Shown here in pieces: positions 3,168-30,921 of a stretch of 32,000 nucleotides of DNA. The notes beneath the pieces were generated by a model. The model made no database searches. It had not been told where the DNA came from and was given only the letters and a program-made list of their open reading frames with translations. Each line of letters begins with the position of its first letter. The stretch's first letter is position 1. This DNA comes from Cupriavidus necator (GTDB lineage: Bacteria; Pseudomonadota; Gammaproteobacteria; Burkholderiales; Burkholderiaceae): positions 600,001 to 632,000 of the forward strand of contig NZ_CP066018.1 in NCBI RefSeq assembly GCF_016127575.1. The letters are read 5' to 3'. Made by a program: the position numbers and the translations under genes.

Positions 3168-3184
3168 GATGTCGGTATCGTTTA

Positions 3185-6506: not shown

Positions 6507-6565
6507 GGCCCGACGGGGCAGCAAGGGTAGTCGGCAAGATGCGCGGGTCAGACAGGAGGCGGGGA

Positions 6566-7882: not shown

Positions 7883-8054
7883 GCCGCCCCAAGTGGCGCA
7901 CTGTCGACTCGCGAGTTGACCGGGGACTTCCCCGCGCATGCCGGTTTGCGCCGGCAGTGGCTGCGAGTATGCTTTCCTTCATGACGCGGATTCCGGCCGG
8001 CCTGCCATCGCCTCTTGCGTGCAGACGCCAGACCGCCGACTGCGGGGGCAGATC

Positions 8055-9647
8055 ATGCGCAGGCAGCCTCATGACGGATCGGGAAAGGATCGACCTTCCG
8101 CCCTCGACTTCAGGGAGGGCGAGCCGCACTTCAGGCTGCTCGCCGACGGCATCCCTCACATGATCATGACCGCCGATGCGGATGGCCGGATCGATTACTG
8201 CAACCGACGGTGGACGAGCTATACCGGCCTCAGTCTTGAGCAGACTCGGTCCGGCGCCTGGAAATCGGCCGTCCACCCCGAGGACTACGCGCGCAATATC
8301 GGCCACTGGGCAGACGCAGTGGCGAGAGGCTGCGAGTACGAAATCGAATATCGCCTGAAACGGGCATCCGATGGCGCCTACCGATGGCACCTCGAACGCG
8401 GGTCACCATTGAAGGATGCTGATGGCAAGATCGTAAAGTGGCTTGCATCCGGCACCGACATCGAAGCGCTGAAGCAGGCCCAGGCCTCTGCTGAAAGTGC
8501 CAACCATGCGAAGTCGGAGTTCCTGTCAAGCATGAGTCATGAATTGCGCAATCCGCTGAACGCCATCCTTGGCTTCGCGCAGCTGATGGCCTCTGAGGCT
8601 CCGCCTCCGACTGCGTCGCAGCAGGCCAGCATCGACCAGATCCTGAAGGCGGGCTGGCATTTGCTGGAGCTCATCAACGAAGTCCTTGACCTGGCCAGGA
8701 TAGAAGCCGGTCAGGCGTCGCTGTCCCCTGAGCCGGTATCGGTCATCGACACCTTGCACGAGTGCCAGGCAATGCTTGAGCAGCAAGCACTGAAACGCTC
8801 GGTCCGCATGCGGTTTCCCGCAGTCGAACCACCCTGCTTCGTCCGTGCCGACAGGACCCGCTTGAAGCAAATCCTCCTCAACCTGCTTTCCAATGCCATC
8901 AAGTACAACCGGGACCAAGGCTCAGTCGATGTGCAGGTGACGACGACGGGACATCGCGTAGGCGTCAGCGTGCGCGACACTGGAGTAGGGTTGACACCGG
9001 AACGGCTGGCCCAGCTATTCCAGCCGTTCAACCGCCTGGGGCATGAGGCAGGCCCCGTGGAAGGCACCGGCATCGGCCTCGTGGTGGCCAAGCGGCTGGC
9101 CGAGTTGATGGGAGGAACCATCAGCGCCAAAAGCACGCCTGGCGTGGGCAGCGTGTTCCGGGTCGAACTGCCTGCTGCCGCGCCTCCCGCAATGGCTGGC
9201 GAGAGCACGGAGGCCGCCGCACCTGTCCGGTCGCCAATCGAAGCCCCGTCCACGATGCACACCTTGCTGTATGTCGAAGACAACCCCGCCAACCTTAAGC
9301 TCCTGGAGCAACTCCTCGCCCGCCGGGCAGACGTGCATTTGCTGTCGGCGGCCACCGGGATTCTCGGAGTCGAGCTCGCGCGCACTTCGCTGCCCGATGC
9401 GATAGTGATGGATATCCATCTGCCGGACATCAATGGCATCGAAGCACTGGGACGCCTGCGCGAAGACCCGATGACAATGCATATTCCGGTCATCGCGCTC
9501 AGTGCCAATGCCATGCCACGCGACATCGAGCGGGGCATGAAGGCAGGATTCTTCCGGTACCTGACCAAGCCCATCAGGATCCACGAATTCATGGATGCAC
9601 TGAACGCCGCACTGGAACAACCGCGAGGATCAATTGCGCAGGGCTAG
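8055..9647 (+). CDS. Cytoplasmic PAS-domain hybrid sensor histidine kinase (PAS-HisKA-HATPase-REC)
   Basis: H-box SHELRNPLNAILGF, N-box LLSNAIKYN, G-boxes DTGVGL and GTGIGL. C-terminal receiver (LLYVEDNPANL..VMDIHLPDINGIE..LTKPI). No hydrophobic segments. The start is uncertain: ATG 8055 has the better G-rich ribosome-binding site, and ATG 7938 is the longest option. Confidence 0.85.
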   Translation: MRRQPHDGSGKDRPSALDFREGEPHFRLLADGIPHMIMTADADGRIDYCNRRWTSYTGLSLEQTRSGAWKSAVHPEDYARNIGHWADAVARGCEYEIEYRLKRASDGAYRWHLERGSPLKDADGKIVKWLASGTDIEALKQAQASAESANHAKSEFLSSMSHELRNPLNAILGFAQLMASEAPPPTASQQASIDQILKAGWHLLELINEVLDLARIEAGQASLSPEPVSVIDTLHECQAMLEQQALKRSVRMRFPAVEPPCFVRADRTRLKQILLNLLSNAIKYNRDQGSVDVQVTTTGHRVGVSVRDTGVGLTPERLAQLFQPFNRLGHEAGPVEGTGIGLVVAKRLAELMGGTISAKSTPGVGSVFRVELPAAAPPAMAGESTEAAAPVRSPIEAPSTMHTLLYVEDNPANLKLLEQLLARRADVHLLSAATGILGVELARTSLPDAIVMDIHLPDINGIEALGRLREDPMTMHIPVIALSANAMPRDIERGMKAGFFRYLTKPIRIHEFMDALNAALEQPRGSIAQG

Positions 9648-9673
9648 CACCGAGTCCCGCGAACTGGCTTGCC

Positions 9674-10846
9674 ATGATCCACCCATCGGACATCCTGGCT
9701 GCAAAAATCCTGGTCGTTGACGATCTGGAGGCCAATGTCCTGCTGCTCGAAAGGATGCTGCATGCGGCCGGATATACCAGCGTCGAATCAACCACCGATC
9801 CGCGCATGGTTTCCGAGCTTCACGGCAGGAACCACTATGACCTGATCGTGCTGGATCTCCAGATGCCTGGCATGGACGGGTTCGAGGTCATGGAGAATCT
9901 CAAGGTCGTCCAGCCGGACAGCTACCTTCCGGTGATCGTTGTCACCGCCCAACCCGATCACAAACTGCGCGCACTGCAGGCCGGCGCGAAGGACTTTGTC
10001 AGCAAGCCATTCGATCTCGGCGAGGTACTGATGCGGGTGCGGAACATGCTGGAGGTACGCCTGCTGCACAGTGAGTCCTTGCAGTACGGCAAGGAACTCG
10101 AGCGCAAGGTGCAGGAACTGGAAGCGAGCCGGGAGACGATAGTCCGTCAGAGCGATGAGCTCAGGCGCCTTTACGAAAAGCTTGTTTGCGAGCAACAGGT
10201 CACTGAGCGTCTTCTGCTAAACGTGTTGCCAGCTCCGATCGCCGAACGTCTGAAACAGCGTTCCCATCCTTTATCCGCCGGCCCTCCGGACGTCATCGCC
10301 GACAGGTTCGAGTCGGTGTCAGTACTGTTTGCAGATATTGTGCATTTCACCCGCTTCGCTCCCGGCATGAGCCCAGAACTACTAGTGGAGGTACTAAACG
10401 AGATATTTGCCGCCTTTGATGAAATCGCCGACGGCCGGGGACTCGAGAAGATCAAGACAATCGGCGACGCATACATGGCGGCCGCCGGTTTGCCGATACC
10501 GGTGGCGGATCATGCCGTTCGGGCCGCCCATATGGCATTAGACATGATGGAGTCGCTGAGCCGATTCAATCAGCGAAGCGGCTACGCGCTGCGGTTGCGG
10601 ATTGGCATCCATAGCGGGGCCGTCGTAGCCGGGGTGATTGGGAGGCGAAAGTTCATCTATGACTTGTGGGGTGATACCGTGAACATCGCGAGCCGGATGG
10701 AGTCTCAGGGCATAGTCGGCGGCATTCAAGTAACTGACGACACTCGACAGCAACTTGGAAAAACCTTCCTACTCGAAGACCACGGGGTGATTGCAGCAAG
10801 AGGCATCGGAGACGTGCATACATGGCATCTGGTTGGGAGAAACTAG
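9674..10846 (+). CDS. Response-regulator receiver fused to a class III adenylate/guanylate cyclase domain
   Basis: REC domain (KILVVDDLEAN..LDLQMPGMDGFE..SKPF), a coiled-coil linker, then cyclase motifs VSVLFADIVHFT, KTIGDAYMAAAG and GIHSGAVVAGVIG..YDLWGDTVNIASRMES. Confidence 0.9.
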   Translation: MIHPSDILAAKILVVDDLEANVLLLERMLHAAGYTSVESTTDPRMVSELHGRNHYDLIVLDLQMPGMDGFEVMENLKVVQPDSYLPVIVVTAQPDHKLRALQAGAKDFVSKPFDLGEVLMRVRNMLEVRLLHSESLQYGKELERKVQELEASRETIVRQSDELRRLYEKLVCEQQVTERLLLNVLPAPIAERLKQRSHPLSAGPPDVIADRFESVSVLFADIVHFTRFAPGMSPELLVEVLNEIFAAFDEIADGRGLEKIKTIGDAYMAAAGLPIPVADHAVRAAHMALDMMESLSRFNQRSGYALRLRIGIHSGAVVAGVIGRRKFIYDLWGDTVNIASRMESQGIVGGIQVTDDTRQQLGKTFLLEDHGVIAARGIGDVHTWHLVGRN

Positions 10847-11496
10847 ACAGCGACGTCCCTGGGACAGTAAGACAGTCTCGGTCTGGACGTGCTCAGTCAA
10901 GCCAGGACACTATTCAGAAAATCTCCCACACGCGTGGAGACCACGCGTGCGCCCCAACCGACGACGCGAAGCAAACCATTGCCAGGGTACCCATGCCCCC
11001 GAAATTTTGCCCAGCTCACTTAACTTCGATCTTCGTAATGGTAGTGGGCGACGAGCCCAACTTGGGCAGGCACAGCGTCAATAGGCGCCGTTCAAATCGA
11101 GCATCAATGTGCTCGACGACGCATCGGACGAGTCTTAATGGCCGAACTCGAACCGGCCTAAGCATTGAACGCCTGGGCAGCGAGACGCAATTCTGGGCCC
11201 ACGCCAGGAACCCATGTCCGCGGCGCGACGCGAGCGATCTCCCTATCCGTATGACCGCGACGAGAGCAACCGGAGGAAGCTATGCTCTAGTTTTTCCCGT
11301 CCCAAAATGCGCTGCGGTTCCATTTGCAGCAGCGATGCGGATCGTTGCGTTCCTATTTTGGCTGGCCATCCCCCAAAGCGATGGTCTACAGCGACCCGCG
11401 CTACGCGCTTTTGCTAGCGAGAGTGCAGATGCGCCATCTCGCAGTCGGGCGCGAGTCACTCTACACCAGGGTGCCGACATCTGTTGATATGTCGCG

Positions 11497-12225
11497 TTAG
11501 TGCACAGACGTCGCGGGCAGGAGTTGCAAGGTGCCGAATCGGTTGTAAAACATTGAGCCTTCGGGGGCTACTGTAGATTCAACGATCCGGACGCGAGAGC
11601 TGTAAGATTTCGTGCCGACCATCATGGTTTCACCGACTTTCACCTTCACCTCCTTCACGACCAAATGCCAAGCGAAAGCGCCGGCGACGGTTGTGCAGTC
11701 GGGGATGTTAGACGGGACACTCACGCCCTTCAGTCCAAAATTTTGCATGCCACTGCAGTGAGCGCCACTACCTCCAGCATCTACGGTGGCGACGAATGCC
11801 CGAAAAATGCCATCGATGCCGTCATTGGCCAGCGCCAGCCAGTTCTGTGAGGGATGGGCTACGCCGGCGTTCTCCACATACACGCCTAGTGCGCCGGCCC
11901 GGACCACGGCGCTCGCAGCGCCCATCACATGTGCCATGCGCTGCCGACTTCCGCCGGCGTCCGCAAGGAGGACATGAGAGGTATGCCGAGCGATGGCCCG
12001 CATGTCATCGGAGTCGTACCAATAGGTACCGCCACATCGAAAGTCCTCCACAATGCTCGAGTTGTGCCCCTTTTGAAAGTGGATGTGGACGCCCTGGCGG
12101 GTTCGCTGATCCACGAGCACGCCATTGGCAAAGCGATAGTTTGGCGCCTGCTTCTTAATGGCCGCCTTGAATTCGACGAGCGATGACCAGGTACCCGGAA
12201 GGATAAGAACTGCGAGATTTTGCAT
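11497..12225 (-). CDS. Hypothetical protein (242 aa), last gene of the orphan operon
   Basis: Track ORF 11497..12366, trimmed to ATG 12225 (MQNLAVLILPGTWSSL..); the longer N-terminus is an implausible R/P/S/T-rich extension. Coding-like codon usage. No family that I can name with confidence, and no clear Shine-Dalgarno. Confidence 0.55.
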   Translation of the reverse strand: MQNLAVLILPGTWSSLVEFKAAIKKQAPNYRFANGVLVDQRTRQGVHIHFQKGHNSSIVEDFRCGGTYWYDSDDMRAIARHTSHVLLADAGGSRQRMAHVMGAASAVVRAGALGVYVENAGVAHPSQNWLALANDGIDGIFRAFVATVDAGGSGAHCSGMQNFGLKGVSVPSNIPDCTTVAGAFAWHLVVKEVKVKVGETMMVGTKSYSSRVRIVESTVAPEGSMFYNRFGTLQLLPATSVH

Positions 12226-12452
12226 GCAACGAATGGCTTGGAGGTGAATGCGCCGAGGCCGTGACGTCGGCGCGAAGCAGGACCTTCTCGGTCCTATGGG
12301 GTTAAGTGAATCCACGCGATAGTTGTTGGCTTGGCAGCTGCGTGGGCGCGTGGTGGTGCGAGGCATGCGGATCTAATTACAAGCCGATTTCCATTTGATC
12401 CAGTCCGCGCTGCAGGGCATCGGTCAGCCAGCCCATGAACGCACACCATCCG

Positions 12453-12913
12453 TCATGCGAAAGCGCCAGCCCGTCGCTGCCATGGATCAGTCTCCGGCGC
12501 ACTATCGAGCTGCCAGCGCAGCCATCGCCTGATCAGCGTTTCCAACTCGAATGGGACGTCAGTCAAATAGATATACCGTTCTTGGTCTTGCACAATGGTT
12601 TTCAGTCCAGCCGGCAGCCAATGCGCCAGGGCGCGCCCTGCCTGCTCGGCAGTCGGGATGCGCTCGACGTTGCGCAGGATCCCCTGCGTGCGAAGAAATT
12701 GGCGCTCGAGGATTTCGCAACTCACCCTGAGCCGTCGATTCGCCCCATGCAACGGTTCCAGCGGATATTGATGAGCGAGCTTGACCACATCAAAAAGGGG
12801 CGGACGTGCGAGGATATTGGGAATCTCTGCGGGGGTACCACGCAATTGTCGGCTAGATCGAAGGTGCGCCCCCGCGTGAAACCCATTTCTCGGAACACGA
12901 ACTTTTCGGTCAT
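12453..12913 (-). pseudogene. Hypothetical gene split over two reading frames (apparent frameshift)
   Basis: ATG 12913 has a strong ribosome-binding site (GGGGGAGGG) and opens a 63-codon frame that stops at 12722. A second, coding-looking frame (track ORF 12453..12845) overlaps it. Both frames are open across 12722-12845, a region that contains G5 and A5G4 runs. Confidence 0.5.
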
Positions 12914-12941
12914 GGCCCTCCCCCGGCGGGTTCGAGCCGCG

Positions 12942-13265
12942 TTAAATGGCCTCGCGCGTCAGCACGACGCCCTGCGGTTCGTTCTGCGAGCTATGCATGG
13001 TGCGCTTGACGGGGGCCACGACGCTGAGCGCCATGCCGACCAATTGCATGGGGCGAACGAGGTCGCGCTCCACATTGTCCAGCGACGCAATAGTCCGGAA
13101 GGTTGAGCACTGCGCTGGGATGCGTGCATCGAACTCGTCCATGACGATGCGATAGGCGCCGGTGGTCAGGGATTCGCCCAACACATTGTCGATCTCGATC
13201 CGCCCAAGTGTTCGGCAGTATTCCTCCTGGCCGTCTGGAATAAGTTCCACGGTAACGCGTAGCAT
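12942..13265 (-). CDS. Hypothetical protein (107 aa)
   Basis: ATG 13265 lies 5 nt after the HAD-like gene stop, with GGGAG upstream. Coding-like composition. No recognisable motif. Confidence 0.55.
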   Translation of the reverse strand: MLRVTVELIPDGQEEYCRTLGRIEIDNVLGESLTTGAYRIVMDEFDARIPAQCSTFRTIASLDNVERDLVRPMQLVGMALSVVAPVKRTMHSSQNEPQGVVLTREAI

Positions 13266-13270
13266 CGGTT

Positions 13271-13801
13271 TTAGCTCCCGAGCAGGGCTTTAGCGGTCAT
13301 GCGTTGCAGCCGCTGCGCCAGTTCGGACTGCGCAGACGCGCTCGAGAGGCCCAGCACGCCATCCGTCTCGACCAAGTAGTCGCGCAGCTCGGCGGGCCAA
13401 TCCTCGCTGTCGTCATCGACGGCCAGCCAGTGTTCGGCCCGCAGCCCGGCCCGCGCAATGTAGCGTGCGATCTGGGCATACCGCGAGAGCTCGTTGAACC
13501 AACTCGCGTCTACGCGATGAGCGCCTTCATGATGCTGCGCCATTGCCGAATGCCAAGTCGCGCCGATGACACGTGCTTGCAGCGCAGCCGGCAGATAGGC
13601 ACGTGCGCGACTGAAGCTTTTGAGGACCCGAACCCACGACGTAGAAAGGACAATACGGACCTGAGGGTACGGCGCGAGAATTTCCTCGAGAATCGGCGCC
13701 CACATGAACAGCGTTCCAGCCGCGCGAAGCTCGGGGCGCCCGTTCACCAAGTAAGCGGCGTCTGGATGCAAGACACCGTCATAGTCCAAAAACAAAATCA
13801 T
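13271..13801 (-). CDS. Small HAD-superfamily-like protein (motif I DxDGV present)
   Basis: N-terminus MILFLDYDGVLHPD matches HAD motif I. 176 aa, no cap domain evident. First gene of the minus-strand operon. Confidence 0.75.
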   Translation of the reverse strand: MILFLDYDGVLHPDAAYLVNGRPELRAAGTLFMWAPILEEILAPYPQVRIVLSTSWVRVLKSFSRARAYLPAALQARVIGATWHSAMAQHHEGAHRVDASWFNELSRYAQIARYIARAGLRAEHWLAVDDDSEDWPAELRDYLVETDGVLGLSSASAQSELAQRLQRMTAKALLGS

Positions 13802-13878
13802 CGCCTTCTTGGCCTTTGTCTGTTACGCAGTGATGCAGGGCAGCATTGGTCCCACAGGTGCACCTACAAACCATGGCA

Positions 13879-13935
13879 TTATAGATTTATAAACAGTAGA
13901 TGTATATCCAGTAGAGTTGCATGTGTGTAGATTTT
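13879..13935. promoter_or_regulatory. Four phased TAGA(T/G) direct repeats in the divergent HAD-operon/XRE promoter region
   Basis: TAGAT at 13882, 13897 and 13928, and TAGAG at 13912 (spacing 15, 15, 16 nt). The extended units TAGATTTATAAA, TAGATGTATATC and TAGATTTTTAGC lie in an AT-rich stretch 30-85 nt upstream of the XRE start. Confidence 0.4.
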
Positions 13936-13963
13936 TAGCCTTGGTTTGCGCACTCTGCGCCCC

Positions 13964-14200
13964 ATGTCAAAGAGTGCTGAAAAGACCTACGCGCGGCTTA
14001 GGGTTGCCTCCAACCTACGGAAGGCAAGGGAGGCTGCGGGCCTATCTCAGGAAGACTTAGCCATCAAGGCAGGATTCCATCGGACCTATGTCAGTCAGAT
14101 CGAGCGCGCGGTGAACAACGCAACAATTGACAATATCTGCAGGCTTGCGGAATTTCTCGGGGTCGATGTTCACGAGTTGTTCATCGACCCTCACCAGTAG
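13964..14200 (+). CDS. XRE-family helix-turn-helix transcriptional regulator (78 aa)
   Basis: LRKAREAAGLSQEDLAIKAGFHRTYVSQIERAVNNATIDNICRLAEFLGV is a canonical Cro/C1-type HTH. ATG 13964 is preferred over the TTG at 13946. Confidence 0.85.
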   Translation: MSKSAEKTYARLRVASNLRKAREAAGLSQEDLAIKAGFHRTYVSQIERAVNNATIDNICRLAEFLGVDVHELFIDPHQ

Positions 14201-15044
14201 TAGTTCCCACTTCGTTCAGCGCCTGGTGTACCGCGGCCCTTTGGTTCGGTTCCGCCACTTTCGCGTTGCCAGGGCAAACCGGCAAACAGTACGTCCCTGC
14301 GACGCTCCTCCTTTTTCAACAGTTCGCCCTTCGCTTTATCTGCTCCCCGACCTCTTTTGGCGAGAATTCAAGGGTTGCAGGGTACGGTGCGGCGGCACCG
14401 TCTCTTGGTAAGGGTCTTCGTCAACAAACTAAAGCAGGGGTGTTGGATGCGCTCGCATGACGGTATGCTCATGCCTGTCTACGGACCAGGCAGCGCGTCA
14501 GCATGGCTCGAATTCCCCAGCTGGATGGCTGTATTGGCAGTGTCCGATAGCGGGCGTGTGGAACTGAGCAACTGCTCCGGTGCACTGTCATAGCATCCGG
14601 TGCGTTCGCCTGAACTTGCCGCTTCGCCAACGCGACCAGCGGCTGCTCGCTGATTCGGTGCCGGGCTATGCATTGCGGCAGTTCAGTGAGGAAGTGGCGA
14701 AGATGCGAATACGGTCCGGCTCGGAGAGTTGGCAGGATTCATCAGCGTATATTCCCACTCAGATCGGACTCCTGACTCCGCCTGGAGTTCTTCCCAGCCG
14801 CCCTTGTGGATGGGTATCTTGCAAATGATACCCTTGGCACGATGTGCTTCCAGTTCATTAAACGAGATTATCATGGCCTGCGCACTTGGCGGTTCTGGGG
14901 AGGAATCGAAGCTCGTCTTCAGGCTCAGGGTGAACACAGATACCTACTAGCCTGATTCGTGAAGTGGGCGAGCGCTCTGCAATTGGATGGGCATGCAATC
15001 GAGCTACGGTTCTCCAAGGACAGCGTACAAGTATGTCGTGGGAC

Positions 15045-15536
15045 CTAGCTTTGAGAATCCCCCCCAACGATGCGGGCAATTTTTTGCTTGCCGGCAAGTA
15101 GCTTATTGACTCGAGCGGCGCGCGCACGCTCCTGCTCCAACTCCTTCTCGGCCTTCACTCGGGCAAAATAGTGAGCAGTAGCTTCTGCGCGAAGCTTCCG
15201 AACTTCAACCTGAAGTTCGAGTTTTTCAGCGCGCAATCGTTGAATGATCTCTGTGTGCGTAGTTGGAAGCGAAGGCTTTTCCTTCGCTTCTCTTATTTTC
15301 TCTCTAACTACTGGATATCGACAGTTTTTATCTAGTCCAATTAATGTTCTAGACCGCCCCGCCTCGACGGCAACGTTACTGATCGTGATCTTCATCTTCC
15401 CGGCAGCTAGCCGATCTTTCATCTTCTTAGTTTTTGGCTTCCCGATCTGCAGCCGCGCCAGCGCATCTAGAAATTCCTGCTCGATGGAGTCTCCCGAATA
15501 TATCGCTTTTCTTTTTAACGACATTTGACTCACCAA
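15045..15536 (-). CDS. Small HTH plus coiled-coil protein co-transcribed downstream of the recombinase trio
   Basis: 163-aa ORF starting 21 nt after the third recombinase stop (AAGGA ribosome-binding site before GTG 15536; ATG 15524 is an alternative). HTH-like ITISNVAVEAGRSRTLIGL is followed by a heptad-rich, charged C-terminal half. Same low GC as the trio. Confidence 0.6.
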   Translation of the reverse strand: MVSQMSLKRKAIYSGDSIEQEFLDALARLQIGKPKTKKMKDRLAAGKMKITISNVAVEAGRSRTLIGLDKNCRYPVVREKIREAKEKPSLPTTHTEIIQRLRAEKLELQVEVRKLRAEATAHYFARVKAEKELEQERARAARVNKLLAGKQKIARIVGGDSQS

Positions 15537-15557
15537 ATCCTTTATGTGTTTTTTGTC

Positions 15558-17651
15558 CTATAGCTCACTGACATTTACACCGAGTTTTCGCAGTATCTTC
15601 TTCGCCTGCTCTGCGCGCTCAAGGATCACCCTGAAACCATTCATTTTACCCACCGCTTCCGCCTCACGAATTGCGATTTGGCTTTTTGTAAAGCGCTCCG
15701 ACCAAAATGCTATGTGACTCTTATCAATAATCGCACATGCACATCCCGCACATACGCTTGAATCTCGCGTGGCAAAATTCGGATATCGCCGGAACCATAA
15801 TGAGGTATTTGAAATCTCATGACACCTCATTTCGCTCGTTTTTACCGGACAGCATGTTGCATACTCCGTAAAAAAGAATTGAAGCTCTTGATTGTCAGCC
15901 CACTCGTCGACGATCCGCCACCTCTCAGAAGTTGGTAATTCGCCTAAATCGTCTTTAAATTCAGCGATCGAATCACCCAAAGTTTGGGCCATTCTACCCG
16001 CGGCAATACTATCTCCTGTTGCCATCTCATAAATCAGTAAATTTCTTCTTTGCCTAGAAACCGAATCCAGGGCTTCAACTTGGAGTGGATTATTCCCTAT
16101 ATAACCGCCCTCCGTCACCGCCATATTGAGGTGATGAAACTGCATTTGTATTGCACCAAGAAGGCTCGGATTTGCCGCCAGGGTAAAGCTGGCCCAGGTC
16201 TTTCGAAGCATATGAGAGCTAAAGATCTTTCCTTTTGACTCGCGCCAAGGGATCAGCTCGCCGTCGGATACTTTTTGCCGCGATTCGTTCGGCAGAGCCG
16301 TCAGGTTTACCCAGTCAACAATAAAATCCCTCATTGCTTTCCTGAGGGAGTCCGACAAAATGGGCTTCAGCGTCCCCGAAGGATGAGAGAGGGAGGCATG
16401 GCCGCGCCACTGAAGTATTAGCCGATCGGTGACCGCGTGATCACGCCAAAGCGAGAAAAGACGGTTAAGAACCTGAAGCGCACGTATTGCAGGCGGTATT
16501 TCATTGCTTCCTTCCGGGCGCATCCCAAGCACCCAGTCAACTTCGATGGGGGGCCCCTCCTTAGTCTTTGAGAGCAACGATCGGACAAGAAACCACTCGT
16601 ATAGACCACGTGAGCTGGATTCCAAACGGACATTACTTGGTAGCCCAGACACAGGATCAATGCCTCCCTTTAGCCCACAAATTTCTGAAATGCGCATGCC
16701 CGACATTCCTTGAACAATGATGGCGCACGCACCCAGCAAATCATATGCAAGCATTCGTGTAGTCCTATGTGCTGCACTCTCTCCATACATGTCACTTGGC
16801 AACTCGGCCAGAGGTCGATGCCATGGCTCACTCGAATCTTTTCCACTCCCAAACTCGAATCGTCGCAGGTCGCGTCGCATTCTCTTGATTCGCTGCGCGC
16901 GCCCTTCATTTGGATGTTGCGCAAGGATCGCCACAAGCCGAAGTATGTCTTCAGCCGGCTGCGACAGAAACCAGAGCGCTTCATTGAACATCGGCACAGC
17001 AACTTCATCTGGTATGGGCTTTATCCACCCTACGCTTTGTCCGGCGCATTCGTCAGCGATACTAGCCAATGATTTTCGAAAAAATGGATCTATTGAAATG
17101 GATTCAATTCCCATCTGCGCCATAGGAATACGTTGACGCCACAAGTTAGCAAGGGCTTCAAGGGCACGTCTTGCAACCGACACAGTGATTTTTTCCTCGT
17201 CTGTACAGTCAAGCATGAATTGGGGTAATTCATCTATATATCTGGAGACGACGCCAGCTGTCAGCTGAGATGGTACGTGGTAGCCATTTATGGCCATCCA
17301 CGACAATAACCACTTGAAAGATTGCTGGTGGGCGGAAACACCTCCAACCATCGTCGGCACTCCTTCGGCCGGCATTTTAAGGAGAGTCAAAAGGAGCGTC
17401 TTCGACCAATGTAAGCGTGCAGCGTGGTGTGGGTCAGTGAGCTTACTCCCGTCAAAGAGTTCTATACTCCAATTGATGGTGCTTGCGGTTTTTTTAAGGC
17501 CAGGCGTAGTCGGCGTAAACTCCCACCTAACATCCTTAAATTGACTATGCTCACTGAGCCAATAATCTTCTAGCTCCTCCTTATTTCTCTGAAACAGCGC
17601 TTTTGGCTCGCGCGAACTAGATCGATTAAGTTTGGCGGAGTTGCGCTGCAT
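15558..17651 (-). CDS. Tyrosine recombinase/integrase, third gene of the trio (RitC position)
   Basis: Track ORF 15558..17774, trimmed to ATG 17651, 5 nt after the preceding stop. Catalytic signatures GMRISEICGL (Arg), SHMLRKTWASF (HxxR) and HHLNMAVTEGGYIG (His..Tyr). Confidence 0.85.
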   Translation of the reverse strand: MQRNSAKLNRSSSREPKALFQRNKEELEDYWLSEHSQFKDVRWEFTPTTPGLKKTASTINWSIELFDGSKLTDPHHAARLHWSKTLLLTLLKMPAEGVPTMVGGVSAHQQSFKWLLSWMAINGYHVPSQLTAGVVSRYIDELPQFMLDCTDEEKITVSVARRALEALANLWRQRIPMAQMGIESISIDPFFRKSLASIADECAGQSVGWIKPIPDEVAVPMFNEALWFLSQPAEDILRLVAILAQHPNEGRAQRIKRMRRDLRRFEFGSGKDSSEPWHRPLAELPSDMYGESAAHRTTRMLAYDLLGACAIIVQGMSGMRISEICGLKGGIDPVSGLPSNVRLESSSRGLYEWFLVRSLLSKTKEGPPIEVDWVLGMRPEGSNEIPPAIRALQVLNRLFSLWRDHAVTDRLILQWRGHASLSHPSGTLKPILSDSLRKAMRDFIVDWVNLTALPNESRQKVSDGELIPWRESKGKIFSSHMLRKTWASFTLAANPSLLGAIQMQFHHLNMAVTEGGYIGNNPLQVEALDSVSRQRRNLLIYEMATGDSIAAGRMAQTLGDSIAEFKDDLGELPTSERWRIVDEWADNQELQFFFTEYATCCPVKTSEMRCHEISNTSLWFRRYPNFATRDSSVCAGCACAIIDKSHIAFWSERFTKSQIAIREAEAVGKMNGFRVILERAEQAKKILRKLGVNVSEL

Positions 17652-17656
17652 ACCTA

Positions 17657-19519
17657 TCAGCCCACCTGCGGCAGCGAAATATGAAACCTCAAAGCTTTGC
17701 TCATGATCTGTTCGGGCACCATATTTAGGAGGTTGTTCAAAGCCGACAGCCTTGGTGCCCAACGGCAGGACCAACTATTCCCGCTCATCTGCACTTGACT
17801 GGCAAGGAGACTGCTTTTCAATGCAAGGTAGTATGCAACACTAATGGCATCATTTGGTCTCGCGACCGCAAGGGGACAGGTCGGACAGCCTCCGTAGTCT
17901 TTGCACAGTACGCCGGAGCGCTGCCCCGGGGAGGGAGAATCAAACGGATCAAGGCAGCGAAAGCCTGGCGTAGCCGCCGCACGGTCATCAGTATTGGTAA
18001 GTCGACGGGGATCAATTTTTCCCTGTGTATTGATCCATCTCTCCCGTAATAATATTACCTCTCCGACTTTTTCCCGGTTCCGCTTGCGGGCTCCATCGCT
18101 GGTGTAATGTGTCCAGGTTGTGCTCATGCGGGAATGATTACCCACTGCCCGCGCCGCCTCCAGGCCACCATCGAACTGTTGCACCATATCAATAATGGTG
18201 GGTCGAATCTGCCCCAAGGTAAAATTTGGCAGCCTATTATCAGCAATAAACTCCTGCAGCTTCGGCCGCCATCCCGAGGAACGTAGGGTGTCATCGGTGA
18301 ATGAGATCACCCGCTTCTGACCTACTTTGGGCACAAAGACGAATACTCTATCGCGATCCTTTTTTTCACAAACTGGCCGAATCCTCGACGTAATTCGCTC
18401 CAAAAGATCTAAGAGATAGTCAAAGCAAAACTTCCTCGAAATGCTCGCCGATGGATCAAGCAACCGCACCAGATCTTTCTTTGCGCGGGCCTTTTCTCCG
18501 ATTACACGTATTCCTCTCAGCCCAAGTCGAAGGAAATTTCTGTCAATCGCGCTCCACTTGAGGCGTAGAACCGTATTGGGGTTAAAGACTGTGGCGATGG
18601 TTAGCAATATCACCAGAGGAACGAGATCACGGGGACTGGAATACAAGTAAGACGCTAGAGTTCGGGCACCGTGCTCCGTCGCTGCGTACCCGAGGCTCCT
18701 ATTTTCCTTCCCAATATCCTCAAGCGTAGGAAGCACGTTTGGATACTTCGCCGCCAACATTGCAAGACATACCGAAACGTTCTTGAGGTCAGTGTGTCCT
18801 TCTTCGATTGCTCGCTTACCCTCCGAGATGAGGACGCCCCCATAATCCAGCCTCGAAGCAATCTCCTCCAGTTCTTCTTCACACGCATCGATAATCGCTA
18901 CTAGCGAGCTGGCTGAAATGACTTCCAAGGGTGAGGCTCTTCGAGCTGCCCCAAAGGGACCTCGAGGCACACGTTGGGCGATGGACTGGGCGCTTTCTGC
19001 CCAGGGCCCCTTGTCTATCACTGATAGCAATATCCGCGGACATCCGAGATAGTTTTTGATGCTATTAGGATGGAGCGGTTTCCCCCTAACACGTCTTGCA
19101 AATAGCCACTCACGATATCCGGTGAACAATTCATCATTAAGATCAGGCGGAGTTAGCTCTACTCCTGCGTAGCAACTGTCCAAATACGAAAACAATCCAT
19201 TTCGCAACGTATAAACTAGCCCCACACGCGTGCGAATACTACGGGTGGGAGCCCAAAGCAAAATCGCTTGTGCAAAGAGCGGCATCAACTCTGACTGCGT
19301 GAGAAGGAAGCTAAGATCAAGTGCCTGCGTCTCCCCGACATCGGTTCGGATCAGTGCACGAAGCGTCGGCCGTCCATCGTCACGACGCCCCGATTCAAGA
19401 AGATTTACAGGAAACAATGGATGGGCACGATCCTTAGAACCATCCTCGGCATTAAGCTGGCGAACGACGCTCGCCGCCGAAGACACTCGCTTCGCACGGA
19501 TGGTCCTATTCTCGCTCAT
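17657..19519 (-). CDS. Tyrosine recombinase/integrase, second gene of the trio (RitB position)
   Basis: 620 aa. C-terminal catalytic region ..LGQIRPTIIDMV..VGNHSRMSTTWTHYTS (xxR, His, Tyr). Its start overlaps the stop of the first gene as ATGA (19516-19519). Confidence 0.85.
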   Translation of the reverse strand: MSENRTIRAKRVSSAASVVRQLNAEDGSKDRAHPLFPVNLLESGRRDDGRPTLRALIRTDVGETQALDLSFLLTQSELMPLFAQAILLWAPTRSIRTRVGLVYTLRNGLFSYLDSCYAGVELTPPDLNDELFTGYREWLFARRVRGKPLHPNSIKNYLGCPRILLSVIDKGPWAESAQSIAQRVPRGPFGAARRASPLEVISASSLVAIIDACEEELEEIASRLDYGGVLISEGKRAIEEGHTDLKNVSVCLAMLAAKYPNVLPTLEDIGKENRSLGYAATEHGARTLASYLYSSPRDLVPLVILLTIATVFNPNTVLRLKWSAIDRNFLRLGLRGIRVIGEKARAKKDLVRLLDPSASISRKFCFDYLLDLLERITSRIRPVCEKKDRDRVFVFVPKVGQKRVISFTDDTLRSSGWRPKLQEFIADNRLPNFTLGQIRPTIIDMVQQFDGGLEAARAVGNHSRMSTTWTHYTSDGARKRNREKVGEVILLRERWINTQGKIDPRRLTNTDDRAAATPGFRCLDPFDSPSPGQRSGVLCKDYGGCPTCPLAVARPNDAISVAYYLALKSSLLASQVQMSGNSWSCRWAPRLSALNNLLNMVPEQIMSKALRFHISLPQVG

Positions 19520-20757
19520 AATCCGATTATTTTCCGCACATCATACAGACCAGGCTGCATATTAAATACCTCCACATGAGCTAAATAGATATCAATAGTC
19601 GTCTGTAGATGCTTGTGTCCGAGTTGTGCTTGTATTTTTTTCCAAGGCTCTGGATTTCCGCTCATACGTTCAGCGTGATACGTAAGCACGGCGTATGTAT
19701 GCCGGAGATCATGGATTGAGTGCCTCGCCCGCTTCCTAAAAAAATTATTGGCGCCCTCTGGATCGATGCAATCGACAATCTTCAACCGCCCGATACCGAG
19801 GCATGCCTCCTCAAAAATTCCTTGCATGCGGCTGATTGAAATTGGCTTACTCTGGCGACTGCTTCCGTATTGACTCAGAAATAGCCGGATCGGTTGATTT
19901 CGAAAAGGAATATCAGTCACCTGGAGTACCGCGGCGCGCTCACCTTCAATGTAAGCAAGAATATCGGACACGAGCCAATTAGGAATCGCGACAGCGCATG
20001 TCTTGCCTCCCTTTCGGACGATACTCAGTTGCTGATCAGCACTCGGAGCTAAAGGATCAGGTGCCAGCGCGAGAAACTGCAAGATCGTCAATGCTGCAAT
20101 CTCTCCTACGCGGAGGCCCACAGCCCATCCCAGATCGAAAATGATCCTATTTCGGCTTAGCCGTTGATCACCGGCCATTTTTTGCGTTGCACGAGGCCCA
20201 GCATACTGCAATAATGCCCGCAAATCCTGTCGCGTCAGAGGATGAATTGCCAAATTAGGCCGAGCCTTTGGAAGATCAACGTCTCTGTAATGTCGAAAAT
20301 CGCTGCCGCAGAGATTTGACCCAATGTCTCCGTCGTACCATTCGGCATCCCGCGCATAAATATAAAAATCTCGGATAACCGACATTCTGCTTTTTACCGT
20401 GGACGCATGGTACTTCCCCCCCGTCTTCGGGGAAATCGCAACCATGTAAGCATCTCTGTAATCAATTCGATCTTGTGAGGACGCCAGCCTCCAGTCTCTC
20501 TTCAGGATCTGCAGATACTGAAACCAGGTTTTCAATGCCTGTGCCACGGCTGCCCAAGTATGCGGGCTAGTTCTAATTCCTCGCGCAACTATGCGCTCGT
20601 GTAAATAGAGACTGGGCTCTTCAAAAACAAGTGATTGACTACTGGTCCGAATGAAAAAAGATGGCTGCCCAACCGTGAGACTGCTCACACCTGGTTCATG
20701 GTGCGCGCAAAGCACAATCTCACCTTCCAAGAAATCGAGCATTGAAACATTGGACAT
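19516..20757 (-). CDS. Tyrosine recombinase/integrase, first gene of the trio (RitA position)
   Basis: 413 aa with the full catalytic set: GLRVGEI (Arg), KGGK (Lys), HDLRHTYA (HxxR), LGHKHLQTT (His) and IYLA (Tyr). Confidence 0.9.
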   Translation of the reverse strand: MSNVSMLDFLEGEIVLCAHHEPGVSSLTVGQPSFFIRTSSQSLVFEEPSLYLHERIVARGIRTSPHTWAAVAQALKTWFQYLQILKRDWRLASSQDRIDYRDAYMVAISPKTGGKYHASTVKSRMSVIRDFYIYARDAEWYDGDIGSNLCGSDFRHYRDVDLPKARPNLAIHPLTRQDLRALLQYAGPRATQKMAGDQRLSRNRIIFDLGWAVGLRVGEIAALTILQFLALAPDPLAPSADQQLSIVRKGGKTCAVAIPNWLVSDILAYIEGERAAVLQVTDIPFRNQPIRLFLSQYGSSRQSKPISISRMQGIFEEACLGIGRLKIVDCIDPEGANNFFRKRARHSIHDLRHTYAVLTYHAERMSGNPEPWKKIQAQLGHKHLQTTIDIYLAHVEVFNMQPGLYDVRKIIGL

Positions 20758-21202
20758 GTTCGCGAGTGCTGAGCCCTTTCGCGAATGCTAGCACGTCCCG
20801 GTCAGGTACAGGACCAGAACTTTTATCTGAACAAATTCAGAGTGGACATCTACCGCCCTACTTAGGCAGCCGCTCCCCGCTTCACAGAAGTACATCTATT
20901 TTCTTTGCCAGAATAATGGCAATTATCGATTCCACATCATGTTCGCATAGAATAATAAAATTAAAATTTCAATATGAGCCTCCAAGTGACTCCATTCACA
21001 GTCACTAGCTAGACATAATCCATTGAGATGCAGGACAAAAAATGTTCACGCGAAGGTGATCACGGCTGTGGCTTTCGTGAACAAATCTCGACGATGCCCT
21101 GCCAGCAGTCCGCTATGCGCTGCCCTCCAGCCATTACCTATGAACACTTTCCTACTGAGATTGGAGTTACCCCTTTAGTCGATCCCCGCTGGGAAACCAG
21201 CG

Positions 21203-21610
21203 TCATCGTGAGGATCTCAGCGGAGACGTTTCACTCCACATTTCGTGCTCGCAACCGCGGTAGGGGTTGAGCGAGACATCGAACGGGATGTCGGGCGATG
21301 CATTGCGCGTCAGGACCGAACGGGCGCGCTCGATATGGACTTCCGTGCGCAGCGGCGGCAGCGGCGCTGCCTCCGGCGACGGTGCGGCTTCGGTGGTACG
21401 CGGCGCCTCTTCTGGTGCACTGCTCCAGCCATCGTCGAACGCTTCACGCAGGTCGCGCTCGAAACGCCCCTGCAGGTTGCTCACGGCGCCTCGGCCCTTG
21501 CGCGCCACGGGCGGCCGCGGGCCTGCCTGCGGCGCGAGTGCGTCGGGGTCGGCATCGGGCCGCGTCGGGCGGCTGCTGACAGGCTTGGGTTTCGGCGGGG
21601 GGCGCTCCAT
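21203..21610 (-). pseudogene. 5-prime fragment of a PA0069-type radical SAM protein gene, truncated at the Fe-S cluster motif
   Basis: ..[49 protein letters not shown] matches this family up to the first Cys/His of the CxxxCxxC region. The sequence then reads [13 protein letters not shown]-stop, and GC drops at about 21243. Start is ATG 21610, or GTG 21625 overlapping the lrp stop. Confidence 0.75.
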
Positions 21611-21621
21611 GCTGGCCTTGG

Positions 21622-22125
21622 TCACACTGCCTGGCTCTTCTCCTCGACGGAAATCGCCAGCGTCTCCTTGATCTCTTCCATCACCACATAGCTCTTCGAC
21701 TGCGCTGCGCCGGGCAGCTGCAGCAGGATGTCGCCCAGCAGCCGGCGGTATTCACCGATCTCGCGGATGCGCGCCTTGATCAGGTAGTCGAAATCGCCCG
21801 ATACCAGGTGACATTCCAGCACTTCCGGGATACGCAGCACCTCGCGCCGGAACTGCTCGAACATATTGCCCGACTTGTTGCCCAGCGAGATCTCGACGAA
21901 CACCAGCAGCGCGCTGCCCAGCAGCGCCGGGTTCAGCCGTGCGTAGTAGCCCATGATGACACCATCGCGCTCCAGGCGCTTGACGCGCTCGATGCAGGGC
22001 GTGATGGTCAGCCCGACCGCTTCGGCCAGGTCCTTCATCGACATCCGGCCGTCGCTCTGCAGCGCCGTCAGGATCTTGCGGTCGAGCCGGTCGAGGGTGC
22101 GCATGGGCTGGCGACTCGTTCTCAT
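21622..22125 (-). CDS. lrp: Lrp/AsnC-family transcriptional regulator (DadR-like, divergent from dadA)
   Basis: Track ORF trimmed to ATG 22125 (AGGAAAA ribosome-binding site). [45 protein letters not shown] plus a RAM/AsnC_trans domain. Confidence 0.9.
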
Positions 22126-26450: not shown

Positions 26451-27200
26451 TCAGATAACCTTGGCTTCGTTCTTCAGCTTCTGCACCAGCGTCGCAACGT
26501 CCGGCACCATCACACCCGCGCTGCGCTTGGCAGGCTCGACCACCTTCAGGGTCGACAGGCGCGGCTTGACGTCGACGCCGAGGTCTTCCGGCTTGACGAT
26601 ATCGAGCTGCTTCTTCTTGGCCTTCATGATGTTCGGCAGCGTCACGTAGCGCGGCTCGTTCAGGCGCAGGTCGGTCGTCACCACGGCCGGCAGCTTGAGC
26701 GACAGCGTTTCCAGGCCGCCATCGACTTCACGCGTCACCGAGGCCTTGCCGTCGGCAACCACCACCTTGGAGGCGAACGTGGCTTGCGGCAGGCCAGCCA
26801 GCGCGGCCACCATCTGGCCGGTCTGGTTGGAGTCGTCGTCGATGGCCTGCTTGCCCAGGATCACCAGTTGCGGCTGTTCCTTGTCGATCAGCGCCTTCAG
26901 CAGCTTGGCCACGGCCAGCGGTTGCAGGTCTTCGTTCGATTCCACCAGGATGCCGCGGTCGGCACCGATGGCCATCGCGGTGCGCAGGGTTTCCTGGCAC
27001 TGCGTGACACCGCACGAGACGGCGATCACTTCGGTGACAACACCGGCTTCCTTCAGGCGCACGGCCTCTTCCACGGCGATTTCGTCGAAGGGGTTCATGC
27101 TCATCTTCACGTTGGCCAGATCGACGCCGCTGCCGTCCGCCTTGACGCGGACCTTGACGTTGTAATCCACCACCCGCTTGACTGCGACGAGTACTTTCAT
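26451..27200 (-). CDS. etfB: Electron transfer flavoprotein subunit beta
   Basis: 249 aa, [39 protein letters not shown].., directly upstream of etfA. Confidence 0.95.
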
Positions 27201-27316
27201 GCGCTCACTCCACTGATAGCTGATAGTCAGAAATTTTGTTCGCTCGTCATTATAACCACCGGGTTGGCGGCTCTCCTGTTTTTCGAACGATCGTACTATT
27301 TTATCGGCAAAATGAT

Positions 27317-27333
27317 GCCGGGCATAGCCCGGC
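27317..27333 (-). terminator. Possible metNIQ operon terminator hairpin
   Basis: GCCGGGC-ATA-GCCCGGC perfect 7-bp stem 86 nt downstream of the metQ stop. The tail on the minus strand is only partly U-rich (ATCATTTTGCC). Confidence 0.4.
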
Positions 27334-27418
27334 AGATCCCAGCCGTCCGACGATTGTGCCGCAAACCGGGGCTTGCGGGCATCGTCTGATTGGATGAAAC
27401 CCTCAAAGTGGCGTCGGC

Positions 27419-28216
27419 TTACCAGGCGGTAATGACCGAGTCCTTGAAGGTCGATGTGACGTATTGCTTGATTTCCGGCGAGTGATAAGCCTTCACCAGC
27501 TTGGCCACCCAGGGCTTGCTCTTGTCAGCCTCGCGGATCGCGATCAGGTTGGCGTACGGACCCTTCGGGCCTTCGATGGCGATGGCATCCTTGACGGGCG
27601 ACAGGCCGGCCGATTCCGCGTAGTTGCCGTTGATGGCGGCGGCATCCAGGTCATCCAGCGAGCGCGGCAGCTGCGCGGCGTCCAGCTCGACGATGCGGAT
27701 CTTCTTCGGGTTCTCGACGATGTCCAGCGGCGTGGCCTTCAGGCCGGCGTTAGGCTTGAGCTTGATCACGCCCTTGCTCTGCAGCAGCAACAGGCCGCGC
27801 CCGCCGTTGGTGGGATCGTTGGGCACGCCCACGCGCGCACCCTGCTTGAGCTGGTCGAGCGACTTGATCTTCTTCGAGTACACGCCCATCGGGAACGTCA
27901 CCGTATAGGCGATATGCGTGAACTTGTAGCCGCGGTCCTTGATCTGGGCTTCCAGGTACGGCAGGTGCTGGTAGCTGTTGGCGTCCAGGTCGCCGGCGGC
28001 CAGCGCGGCGTTGGGCTGGATGTAGTCGCTGAACTCGACCACGTGGATGTTCAGGCCGTCCTTGGCGGCGACCTTCTTCACCTGTTCCATGATCTGGGCG
28101 TGCGGGCCGCCGGTCACGCCGATCTTGATCGGCTTTTCCTGGGCGACGGCGCCCGTTGCCAGCGTTGCGCCGATCGCGGCGCCGAGAATCCATTGCAGCA
28201 GGTTGCGACGTTGCAT
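27419..28216 (-). CDS. metQ: Methionine ABC transporter substrate-binding lipoprotein
   Basis: Track ORF trimmed to ATG 28216 ([25 protein letters not shown] signal). NlpA/MetQ-like body. Follows metN and metI. Confidence 0.9.
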
Positions 28217-28262
28217 GATATGCGTTCCTGTTTCAGAAAATAATTGACTTGGCGTTGACGGA

Positions 28263-28916
28263 TTAGCGGTGGCTGATACGGCGGACAAGCCAGTCGCCGA
28301 AGCTCTGCACGGCCTGCACGAACACGATCAGGATCACCACCACCGCCACCATGACCTCGGTGATATAGCGCTGGTAGCCGTAGCGGATGCCCAGGTCGCC
28401 CAGACCGCCTCCGCCGATCGCGCCGGCCATGGCCGAATAGCCGACCAGGCTGACAAAGGTGATGGTCAGGCCGGCGACGATGCCGGGCATGGCCTCGGGC
28501 AGCAGCACCTTCCACACGATCTGGCGGGTGGTGGCGCCCATCGACTGAGCGGCCTCGACCAGGCCCTTGTCGACCTCGCGCAGCGCGCTTTCCACCAGGC
28601 GCGCGATAAACGGGATCGCCGCGATGGTCAGCGGCACGATCGCCGCGGTGGTGCCGATCGACGACCCGACGATAAAGCGCGTGAACGGGATCACCACCAC
28701 CAGCAGGATGATGAACGGGATCGAGCGCACGGCGTTGACCACCACGCCGATGCCGCGGTTGAACAGCGGGTGCGACAGCACGCCGCCACGGTTGGTCAGG
28801 TGCAACAGCACGCCCAGCGGCACGCCCAGCAGCGAGCCGACCACGCCCGAGATCGCCACCATCAGCAGGGTCTCGTTGAACGAGGTCAGGAACAGGTCAA
28901 ACATTTCAGACCACAT
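28263..28916 (-). CDS. metI: Methionine ABC transporter permease
   Basis: 217 aa, five hydrophobic segments. MetI-type EAA loop region ..[32 protein letters not shown]. Confidence 0.9.
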
Positions 28917-29940: not shown

Positions 29941-29950
29941 GGAAAGGTGA

Positions 29951-29997
29951 CCAAAAGAAAAACGGCAACAGGCGAGGGATCTCCAGCGCTGTTGCCG
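29951..29997 (-). terminator. Terminator-like hairpin plus U-tract inside the metN leader (candidate attenuator or riboswitch expression platform)
   Basis: Minus strand: CGGCAACAG-N17-CTGTTGCCG followed by TTTTTCTTTTGG, ending about 11 nt before the metN ATG. No purine-rich Shine-Dalgarno in between. Confidence 0.5.
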
Positions 29998-30067
29998 CTC
30001 GTTATTTTTCTGAAGCGCGTATTTTATGCGATTCGCTTCATACCATAAACGACTTTTTACCGATGTC

Positions 30068-30096: not shown

Positions 30097-30105
30097 AAAA
30101 GTCGA

Positions 30106-30915: not shown

Positions 30916-30921
30916 GCTCTC

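Follow-up and report, generated by a model that had tools for sequence, protein, structure and literature searches.

A probable SE-type recombination module heading an 86-kb genomic island in Cupriavidus necator

A low-GC block in a 32,000-nt stretch of Cupriavidus necator DNA (NCBI RefSeq assembly GCF_016127575.1, contig NZ_CP066018.1, forward-strand positions 600,001 to 632,000; hereafter the window, whose own numbering is used unless another sequence is named) had been marked in a first-pass annotation as a recombinase-in-trio (RIT) element. Sequence comparison leads us to a different identification: positions 15045–21243 probably constitute a recombination module of the SE kind, lying at the left end of an integrative island that the H16 lineage of C. 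necator carries in a radical-SAM gene of the PA0069 family. Five groups of prokaryotic elements are moved by tyrosine recombinases, namely ICE/IME, RIT, GInt, SE and Tn554 (PMC10214605, Discussion and Table 1), and the SE kind was described in 2022–2023 (SE-6283, SE-6945 and SE-PaeBT2436; Nonaka 2022, Idola 2023, PMC10214605), so the mechanism, which the annotation had called uncharacterised, is not wholly so. The kind is already known; the clade found here, its host classes, its target and the half active site of its Tfp protein are not described in the literature searched.

Four genes in the order intA-tfp-intB-srap

The module consists of four minus-strand genes, a leader and the left end. 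The gene nearest that end, g1 (19516–20757; 413 aa), encodes an IntA-type tyrosine recombinase, taken from the list of open reading frames (ORFs) and passing both Pfam Phage_integrase (PF00589) and SAM_1 (PF02899). Then come g2 (17657–19519; 620 aa), a Tfp-type protein of tyrosine-recombinase fold recognised from the ORF list, a family alignment and an AlphaFold2 (AF2) model, and g3 (15558–17651), an IntB-type large tyrosine recombinase recognised by alignment and hhalign, with 697 aa from the ATG that homologue N-termini favour (the mechanical ORF extends to a TTG at 17774). Last is g4 (15045–15536; 163 aa), which encodes a Srap-type accessory protein and is conserved 3′ of g3 in all related loci. 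All four are intact and full length relative to their homologues. Much of what had been annotated for the trio stands: the ORF list agrees on three minus-strand genes of these sizes set end to end, direct reading of the sequence confirms the ATGA overlap of g1 and g2 (19516–19519) and the 5-nt spacing (TAGGT) between g2 and g3, and GC content is 0.45–0.53 in every 500-nt interval of 15501–21000 against 0.60–0.70 right of 21500. We likewise retain the view of the trio as a co-expressed recombination module of a mobile element, its expression being predicted. The extent given for the unit (15558–20757) does not hold, as the fourth gene had been overlooked and the unit reaches far beyond these limits. 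Between the left terminus and g1 lies a non-coding minus-strand leader (20758–21231) without a conserved ORF; g1 starts 486 nt from the terminus, and the equivalent spacer in related loci measures 170–195 nt.

The family assignment was made against SE references (pAQU1, pBT2436, p92-9000 and a Photobacterium toruni plasmid), both directly and by way of an intermediate clade of alpha- and betaproteobacterial plasmid modules with the same four genes (from Mesorhizobium, Methylocella and Sphingomonas, together with the large module of pHG1, a megaplasmid of the same species). In hhalign, the window family matches this clade with 99.9% probability at position 1 (IntA; 346 columns), position 2 (Tfp; 559 columns) and position 3 (IntB; 578 columns) and with 95.8% at position 4 (Srap; 117 columns), and the clade matches the SE proteins with 99.1%, 93.7% (481 columns), 98.5% and 96.0% at the same four positions. 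Hidden Markov models (HMMs) built from the clade recognise the window proteins in a position-specific manner, scoring 87, 120, 81 and 17 bits on g1 to g4. It is because of this position-by-position chain of profiles that we regard the module as homologous, gene for gene, to intA-tfp-intB-srap. Direct comparison adds matches of g3 to SE IntB (93.9%, E = 1.6e-7) and of g4 to SE Srap (76.7%, E = 2e-5). SE proteins have been described as a Tfp of at least 550 aa with a recombinase fold, a large catalytic IntB and a small Srap with a coiled coil (PMC10214605). Here, too, a catalytic, a degenerate, a large catalytic and a small helical protein follow one another in that order at the left end; g2 is above the Tfp size limit and has the recombinase fold with an incomplete RHRY set, and g3 is a large IntB with RHRY, all of its catalytic residues being invariant. 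The hosts go beyond the Gammaproteobacteria, to which the SE host range has been confined.

A second SE-type four-gene module is present on pHG1 (NC_005241.1, 27084–36203), made up of an integrase (34782–36203), a Tfp-like gene (29320–31200), an IntB-like gene (27443–29323) and a small gene (27084–27434); a canonical RIT (31477–34722, opposite strand) is inserted between its integrase and its Tfp-like gene. In hhalign, its Tfp-like product reaches a probability of 96.7% against SE Tfp, and its IntB-like product 99.2% against SE IntB.

The three recombinase-fold proteins differ in their active sites. All of them had been credited with tyrosine-recombinase catalytic signatures, which holds in full for g1 and g3, each with a complete set, and in part for g2, whose set is incomplete. 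The only Pfam match of g3 is below threshold, at the catalytic box; residues R320, K362, H480-x-x-R483, H506/H507 and Y517 are invariant in the alignment of its family, and a Cys/His cluster (C600, C610, C634, C637 and H646) lies in its C-terminal part. For g2 there is no sequence match in Pfam, NCBIfam or the PDB, and profiles of g2 and g3 likewise drew a blank against PDB sequences; the AF2 model of g2 (predicted local distance difference test score, 79) matches XerH 5JJV (E = 4e-5), XerA, Cre and IntI over ~400 columns, XerH 5JJV being the template also reported for SE Tfp (PMC10214605). The 26 aligned sequences of the g2 family all have Asn (N313) in place of Arg-I and have lost the HxxR His; they share K343, R439 and Y472 without exception, H462 nearly always and, in the C-terminal part, an invariant motif of four Cys (C522, C539, C545 and C548). 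The first-pass annotation had thus been right to see a non-canonical second protein, with its hint of a division of labour, and the GQIRPT box that it singled out is real, being conserved as LxQ(L/I)RPT.

When second-gene products of the g2 family, the intermediate clade and three SE references were aligned jointly (n = 14), the Asn and the Lys were each found in 13 of the 14 sequences, and none lacked Arg-II, the Tyr or any of the four Cys. By this alignment-based measure the three SE Tfp references keep the Tyr, the HxxR Arg and the four Cys, and two of them the β-hairpin Lys. SE Tfp has been published as devoid of the RHRY motif (PMC10214605); judged from these alignments, the conserved residues of Tfp are at odds with a description of the protein as wholly without it. 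The fourth protein, g4, is predicted by an AF2 single-sequence model to be all-helical, with short N-terminal helices and one long C-terminal helix of 64 residues (94–157); a g4 homologue of the intermediate clade passes Pfam TetR_N, and several touch DUF6262, as does one SE Srap.

The same arrangement recurs across proteobacteria. A tblastn search places g1-g2-g3-g4 on Sphingobium yanoikuyae pSES189, at 36–41% identity, and the four-gene order is found again on Methylomonas plasmid pUP202 (contig L123, 2506–8248) and, by look-ups with g2 homologues, on Janthinobacterium and metagenome contigs, with products of ~425, 630–643, 731–733 and 157–162 aa. A metagenome scan yielded 15 further loci, the order being kept in all 13 that were of sufficient length. 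More than 25 loci, drawn from three classes of Proteobacteria, have the same gene order, the same spacing and the same fourth gene, the hosts being Cupriavidus, Janthinobacterium and Duganella (Beta), Sphingobium, Mesorhizobium and Methylocella (Alpha) and Methylomonas (Gamma), and the g2 profile retrieves 1,019 cluster representatives at E ≤ 1e-3, and 412 at E ≤ 1e-30, from 1.84 billion proteins (clusters at 50% identity). SEs have been reported from Gammaproteobacteria only, Alpha- and Betaproteobacteria having been searched, with PSI-BLAST homology to Tfp and Srap as the criterion, and found to be without homologues of either (PMC10214605). The wider host classes seen here extend the published range, which does not weaken the assignment of mechanism, and our profile-based assignments contradict the published absence of SE-type Tfp and Srap from Alpha- and Betaproteobacteria. 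On the metagenome contigs both ends of one small element were not captured, every island being longer than the 10-kb flank, and the upstream ORFs examined for a target in family members outside the radical-SAM gene were uninformative. The clade member on pUP202 sits between traU and traN, and the classical SE on pAQU1 adjoins traN; on plasmids, both may have the surroundings of conjugation genes as their target.

Island ends and the radical-SAM target

The left end is marked by the gene that it interrupts. A 5′ fragment of the host PA0069-family radical-SAM gene (21244–21625, minus strand; codons 1–127) is broken after ...NPYRGCEH, with the junction between positions 21243 and 21244, where it separates the CEH codons of the Fe–S cluster motif from the GC codons; read across the junction, host ...TGCGAGCACG is followed by element AAATGTGGAGTG. 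The fragment shares 87% amino-acid identity with residues 1–127 of the intact gene of C. lacunae, and synteny with ten other Cupriavidus genomes ends at 21244. The last 6 host nt abutting the element are AGCACG (21249–21244), and the left terminus itself, on the attL side (21232–21243, minus strand), reads AAATGTGGAGTG inward, the family consensus being WWATGYNNA. At 11 other loci, in Janthinobacterium and metagenomes, a module occupies the identical nucleotide of the same gene, with termini that fit this consensus. The frame of the truncated host gene stays open for 140 codons (21203–21625), to a stop 41 nt inside the element, and the host promoter could drive transcription into the module, as has been described for GInts.

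The right end was found by anchoring on the neighbouring dehydrogenase gene, whose H16 orthologue is CAJ92039.1. Exact matches to g2 and g1 lie on chromosome 1 of C. necator H16 (AM260479.1), and the window is the reverse complement of positions 881,785–913,784 of an H16-like chromosome, CP196472.1, to which it is identical over its first 12.3 kb. In CP196472.1 the left junction maps to 892,542, and the right junction, ...GACGGACCATAA AACACG followed by GCTGCATCTACTGC, falls between 978,992 and 978,993, giving an island of 86,451 bp. The two radical-SAM halves have the same order and orientation in H16, where the genes at the right end are, in order, the dehydrogenase, TM2, LysR, the 3′ gene fragment and a spare radical-SAM copy, and then DUF4145, a kinase and a reverse transcriptase. 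As both ends are mapped, all window DNA left of 21243 is island cargo or module, and beyond the window start another ~65 kb of island leads to the right end. Neither the window nor the adjoining 9 kb on its start side contains the radical-SAM 3′ half, the right-end motif or the spare copy; a truncated remnant in H16 ending at ~10.85 kb had been considered, and was rejected once the right end was found 86 kb away.

Right junctions from two further Cupriavidus islands allow the 6 nt beside the terminus to be compared. That of contig L103 reads ...GAGTCCACATAA GTATGA followed by GCTGCATC, and that of strain YR651 reads ...GACGGACCATAG ACATTG followed by GCTGTATC; over 393 nt the right end of H16 shares ~80% identity with that of YR651, the last 6 nt (AACACG in H16) being wholly different. 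In intact genes the host halves are contiguous, with no host bases duplicated or lost at the insertion and 6 extra nt at attR. SEs have been reported to leave 6 bp as a footprint at attR, without an empty site (PMC10214605), and in the footprint model, described for SEs and Tn554, the 6 bp of attB stay at attL and the carried 6 bp go to attR (PMC10214605, Background and Fig. 11 legend; PMC12486829). In H16, attL keeps AGCACG, and AACACG corresponds to GAA-CAC-G, an allele that other hosts have at this site; since the footprint is another host's allele, it is as this model predicts. The junctions suggest the SE pattern, in which the footprint at attR would derive from a donor and the attB 6 bp would be kept at attL.

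Each of these three islands also bears a spare intact copy of the radical-SAM gene, low in GC and ~160–370 nt from the right end (15011–16096 of the H16 contig L131, 8552–9637 of L103 and 8648–9733 of the YR651 contig L104). The L103 and YR651 copies are full length, on the opposite strand and 51–52% identical to the host gene; the H16 copy is 53% identical to the host gene and 91% to the YR651 copy. At the insertion site the spare-copy DNA keeps GAGCACGG, with flanking synonymous positions diverged. Such a diverged copy on the island probably restores the lost host function, and a related transposon with a target-gene-like copy provides a precedent (PMC12486829). An 18-bp perfect palindrome ~121–138 nt from the right end is conserved in H16 and YR651 and could be a terminator of the spare copy or a protein-binding site.

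Cargo and alternative readings

The cargo nearest the module (10.85–15 kb) is specific to the H16 lineage. It includes a small XRE-family helix-turn-helix regulator (13946–14200, plus strand; Pfam HTH_3, 2e-15), which PADLOC scores as a control protein of restriction-modification type and which is a frequent companion of the module, with homologues near g4 in loci L096/97, L106/107, L114 and L117. The remaining lineage-specific stretch (10850–13945) holds ORFs of 221, 289 and 107 aa without assigned function and a HAD_SAK_2 protein ('Swiss Army Knife' RNA-repair HAD; 13271–13801; Pfam 1.5e-31), after which comes the 107-aa ORF, itself without a family. Scans of the near cargo with PADLOC and PHROGs returned the XRE regulator and generic integrase matches only. 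Further cargo (1–10849), of host-like GC content, encodes DUF1329, PhyH, amine oxidase, cytochrome c, M23 peptidase, hybrid histidine kinase and REC-adenylate/guanylate cyclase proteins. Elsewhere, the cargo 3′ of the Janthinobacterium and metagenome modules is unrelated from one to another (NERD helicase with DUF87 and SIR2; AAA_13 with nSTAND3 and Mrr; czc efflux). Cargo beside modules, surveyed at six loci, is often anti-phage defence, the first two of these sets and a HamA with a DEAD helicase (Hachiman-like) being examples; the H16 island has a reverse-transcriptase protein, and the GInt of pEQ011 has Avs4.

Several observations weigh against reading the module as the working end of one SE-kind island. 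Compared directly with SE Tfp, g2 gives no significant hhalign match (E = 0.17), and its SE link, as drawn from profiles, depends on the intermediate clade. Exact copies of g1 occur in the H16 lineage only, in one and the same context each time. The H16 termini, AAATGTGGAGTGA and TTATGGTCCGTCA, form a weak inverted repeat (~7 of 13 positions), the imperfect terminal inverted repeats of SEs being motifs C and C′ of 13–19 bp (PMC10214605), and the left terminus, with its WWATGYNNA motif, fits the right end of L103 better than its own. Window positions 1–10826 are 96.5% identical to a 737-kb replicon of 'Ralstonia pickettii' DTP0602 (CP006669.1), in which the shared block of at least 20 kb (11780–33144), from the REC-cyclase by way of the hybrid histidine kinase, M23 peptidase, cytochrome c and amine oxidase genes to DUF1329, DUF1302 and MMPL, has other neighbours and no adjacent module; divergence begins exactly at the 3′ end of the cyclase gene, and synteny of the window with this replicon and one further locus ends at ~10826–10850. 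A shared block of host-like GC suggests accretion rather than one coherent transposon. Island content, moreover, was read on either side of a middle stretch of ~50 kb. Such observations fit a reading to which we give a substantial, if less than even, chance: that the module is genuine and the H16 island is a fixed mosaic, assembled from two related elements and captured DNA, through accretion or recombination, and immobile as a unit. The poor match of the termini to each other, the middle cargo common to a replicon without the module and the single context in all H16-lineage assemblies all speak for it, as does the fact that the right end and target copy are 80–91% like those of YR651, yet the YR651 g2 homologue (P0022, not placed on that island) is only 46% identical. 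Against it stand the four intact, full-length genes and the intactness of both termini and of the footprint, and large size is no obstacle, as GInts of 70–76 kb have been described (PMC5385486).

Other readings concern the kind of module. That it is a RIT, with RitA-RitB-RitC in a compact ~3.5-kb unit bounded by long terminal inverted repeats, now seems very improbable, even though it is invited by three consecutive recombinase-fold genes, two of them overlapping by 4 nt, and by the abundance of RITs in this Cupriavidus genome. Matches of g1 to Rit profiles (hhalign 95%; RIT_B HMM 22 bits) are generic, g1 matching RitA, RitB, RitC, GinA and IntA about equally, and the canonical RITs of pHG1 encode proteins of 412/314/332 and 420/327/336 aa (with overlaps of 4–8 nt) rather than 413/620/697 aa. 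The subfamily test set out in the annotation fails on g2 and g3: the pHG1 RitB HMM and profile are silent on both, and RitC is silent on g2 and meets g3 only at an HMM E of 0.017 and an hhalign probability of 53% over 45 columns round the first catalytic box; the intermediate clade, too, matches RitB/RitC with low probability. All Rit proteins keep the catalytic motif (PMC3414803 Table 1; PMC10214605 Table 1), whereas g2 is without Arg-I and His-I; the fourth gene is conserved with the trio; and the true ends lie at 21243 and 86 kb away, with no terminal inverted repeats of at least 34 bp flanking the trio. A 22-nt inverted repeat does bracket g1–g3 (15549–15570 and 21021–21042; 18 of 22 positions, with an exact 11-nt core TTTTTTGTCCT, local shuffles reaching at most 16), but it leaves out g4, is not found in four related loci and is probably incidental, so that the inverted-repeat check proposed in the annotation yields no meaningful terminal repeats within the window. 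Size mismatch, a degenerate g2, a conserved fourth gene, failing profiles and missing flanking repeats together led us to reject the RIT identity. A GInt (ginABCD) island, with two ordinary catalytic integrases, a large degenerate GinC and GinD, would share the logic of a four-gene 5′ operon, variable cargo and site-specific insertion in a conserved gene, has imperfect direct repeats at its borders (compare AGCACG and AACACG), is reported in Betaproteobacteria (PMC5385486 Table S3; PMC10214605) and has a GinC that, like g2, is without the first Arg (Bardaji 2017, PMC5385486). It is nevertheless improbable: as in SEs, the degenerate protein here comes second, not third, and third place is taken by the large catalytic one, and against four ginABCD sets (E. 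coli Sakai, pEQ011, and Pseudomonas and Bosea plasmids) g2, g3 and g4 find no match to GinB, GinC or GinD, with hhalign probabilities of 0.1–1.1% for the window families against GinC and GinD and of at most 34% for the intermediate clade against GinB, GinC and GinD. Searches by tblastn with GinC and with g2 or g3 also hit disjoint plasmid sets, and on gene order and profiles the GInt identity was rejected. That three phage or island integrases were acquired independently and lie together by chance is scarcely credible, given the recurrence of one order, spacing and fourth gene across the related loci and a PHROG or phage context limited to generic integrase matches.

Proposed mechanism and relation to known elements

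Returning to the SE-kind module, we infer roles for its proteins, and circularisation, by homology with SE-6283, SE-6945 and Tn554. IntA and IntB would carry out DNA cleavage and rejoining at both termini, which are imperfect inversions of each other, and Tfp and Srap would act as DNA-binding or architectural subunits, required in all four-gene systems; in GInts, ginA, ginB, ginC and ginD are all essential (PMC5385486). Recombination of attL with attR would give a circular copy with a 6-bp spacer from the left flank, and on integration the 6 bp of attB would remain at attL, the carried 6 bp being left at attR as a footprint.

A bolder proposal, which we advance tentatively and rate as rather unlikely in its entirety, is that Tfp, far from being a dead scaffold, is a paralogue of recombinases in which half of the active site is universally conserved (Lys, Arg-II, His-II and the nucleophilic Tyr, Asn always standing in for Arg-I), along with a four-Cys module, and that it might form with IntA or IntB a composite site, which it would complete or gate such that only one strand pair exchanges; that the SE superfamily spans Alpha-, Beta- and Gammaproteobacteria; and that the radical-SAM-targeting clade carries a spare copy of its target that makes insertion harmless. 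If true, such a composite site would account for the strand bias as well as for the need for three proteins with a recombinase fold. SE, GInt and Tn554 elements use several tyrosine recombinases to move resistance, virulence and defence genes, and C. necator H16 is a tractable host with four intact genes, both ends mapped and attB known from relatives, so that knock-outs, mini-element assays and Tfp point mutants should be straightforward. The choice of target, codons of an Fe–S motif, paired with a spare copy of it, suggests a mobile element that pays for its own insertion, and the assignment marks ~86 kb of H16 chromosome 1 as island.

Among known systems, RITs resemble the module in having three adjacent, overlapping recombinase-fold genes and in being common in Cupriavidus (Van Houdt 2009/2012, Ricker 2013), and differ in their three short (315–420 aa), fully catalytic proteins of distinct subfamilies, in their terminal inverted repeats and in lacking a fourth gene and cargo. 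GInts are alike in their four-gene operon (essential there), in the tripartite plan of module, cargo and short distal end, in targeting a conserved housekeeping gene, in their Betaproteobacterial occurrence and in large size, up to 70–76 kb (PMC5385486), and unlike in the order of catalytic and degenerate proteins and in the lack of profile similarity to GinB, GinC and GinD. The Tn554 family (TnpA, TnpB and TnpC) shares a 6–7-nt junction sequence carried from donor to new site and the absence of target duplication, and some of its members bear a target-gene-like gene (including Tn552-II/Tn553, PMC12486829); its elements are small, have Firmicutes hosts and have no counterpart of Tfp, and the conserved Tfp-like g2 places the module outside that family. 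A BIM module, of a recombinase and an SMC-domain protein, was set aside as differing in composition.

It is SEs that the H16 module resembles in gene order and sizes (an ordinary IntA, a Tfp of ~600 aa, an IntB of ~680 aa and a Srap of ~160 aa), in its position at the left end, in site-specific insertion without target duplication and in a 6-nt footprint beside the right terminus; its clade shares with them a variable cargo, often of defence or resistance genes. It differs from SEs in that direct BLAST or HMM similarity is marginal or absent, in its Beta- and Alphaproteobacterial hosts and in its radical-SAM target, and the H16 island, at 86 kb against an SE median of 15.7 kb, also bears a copy of the gene into which it has inserted.

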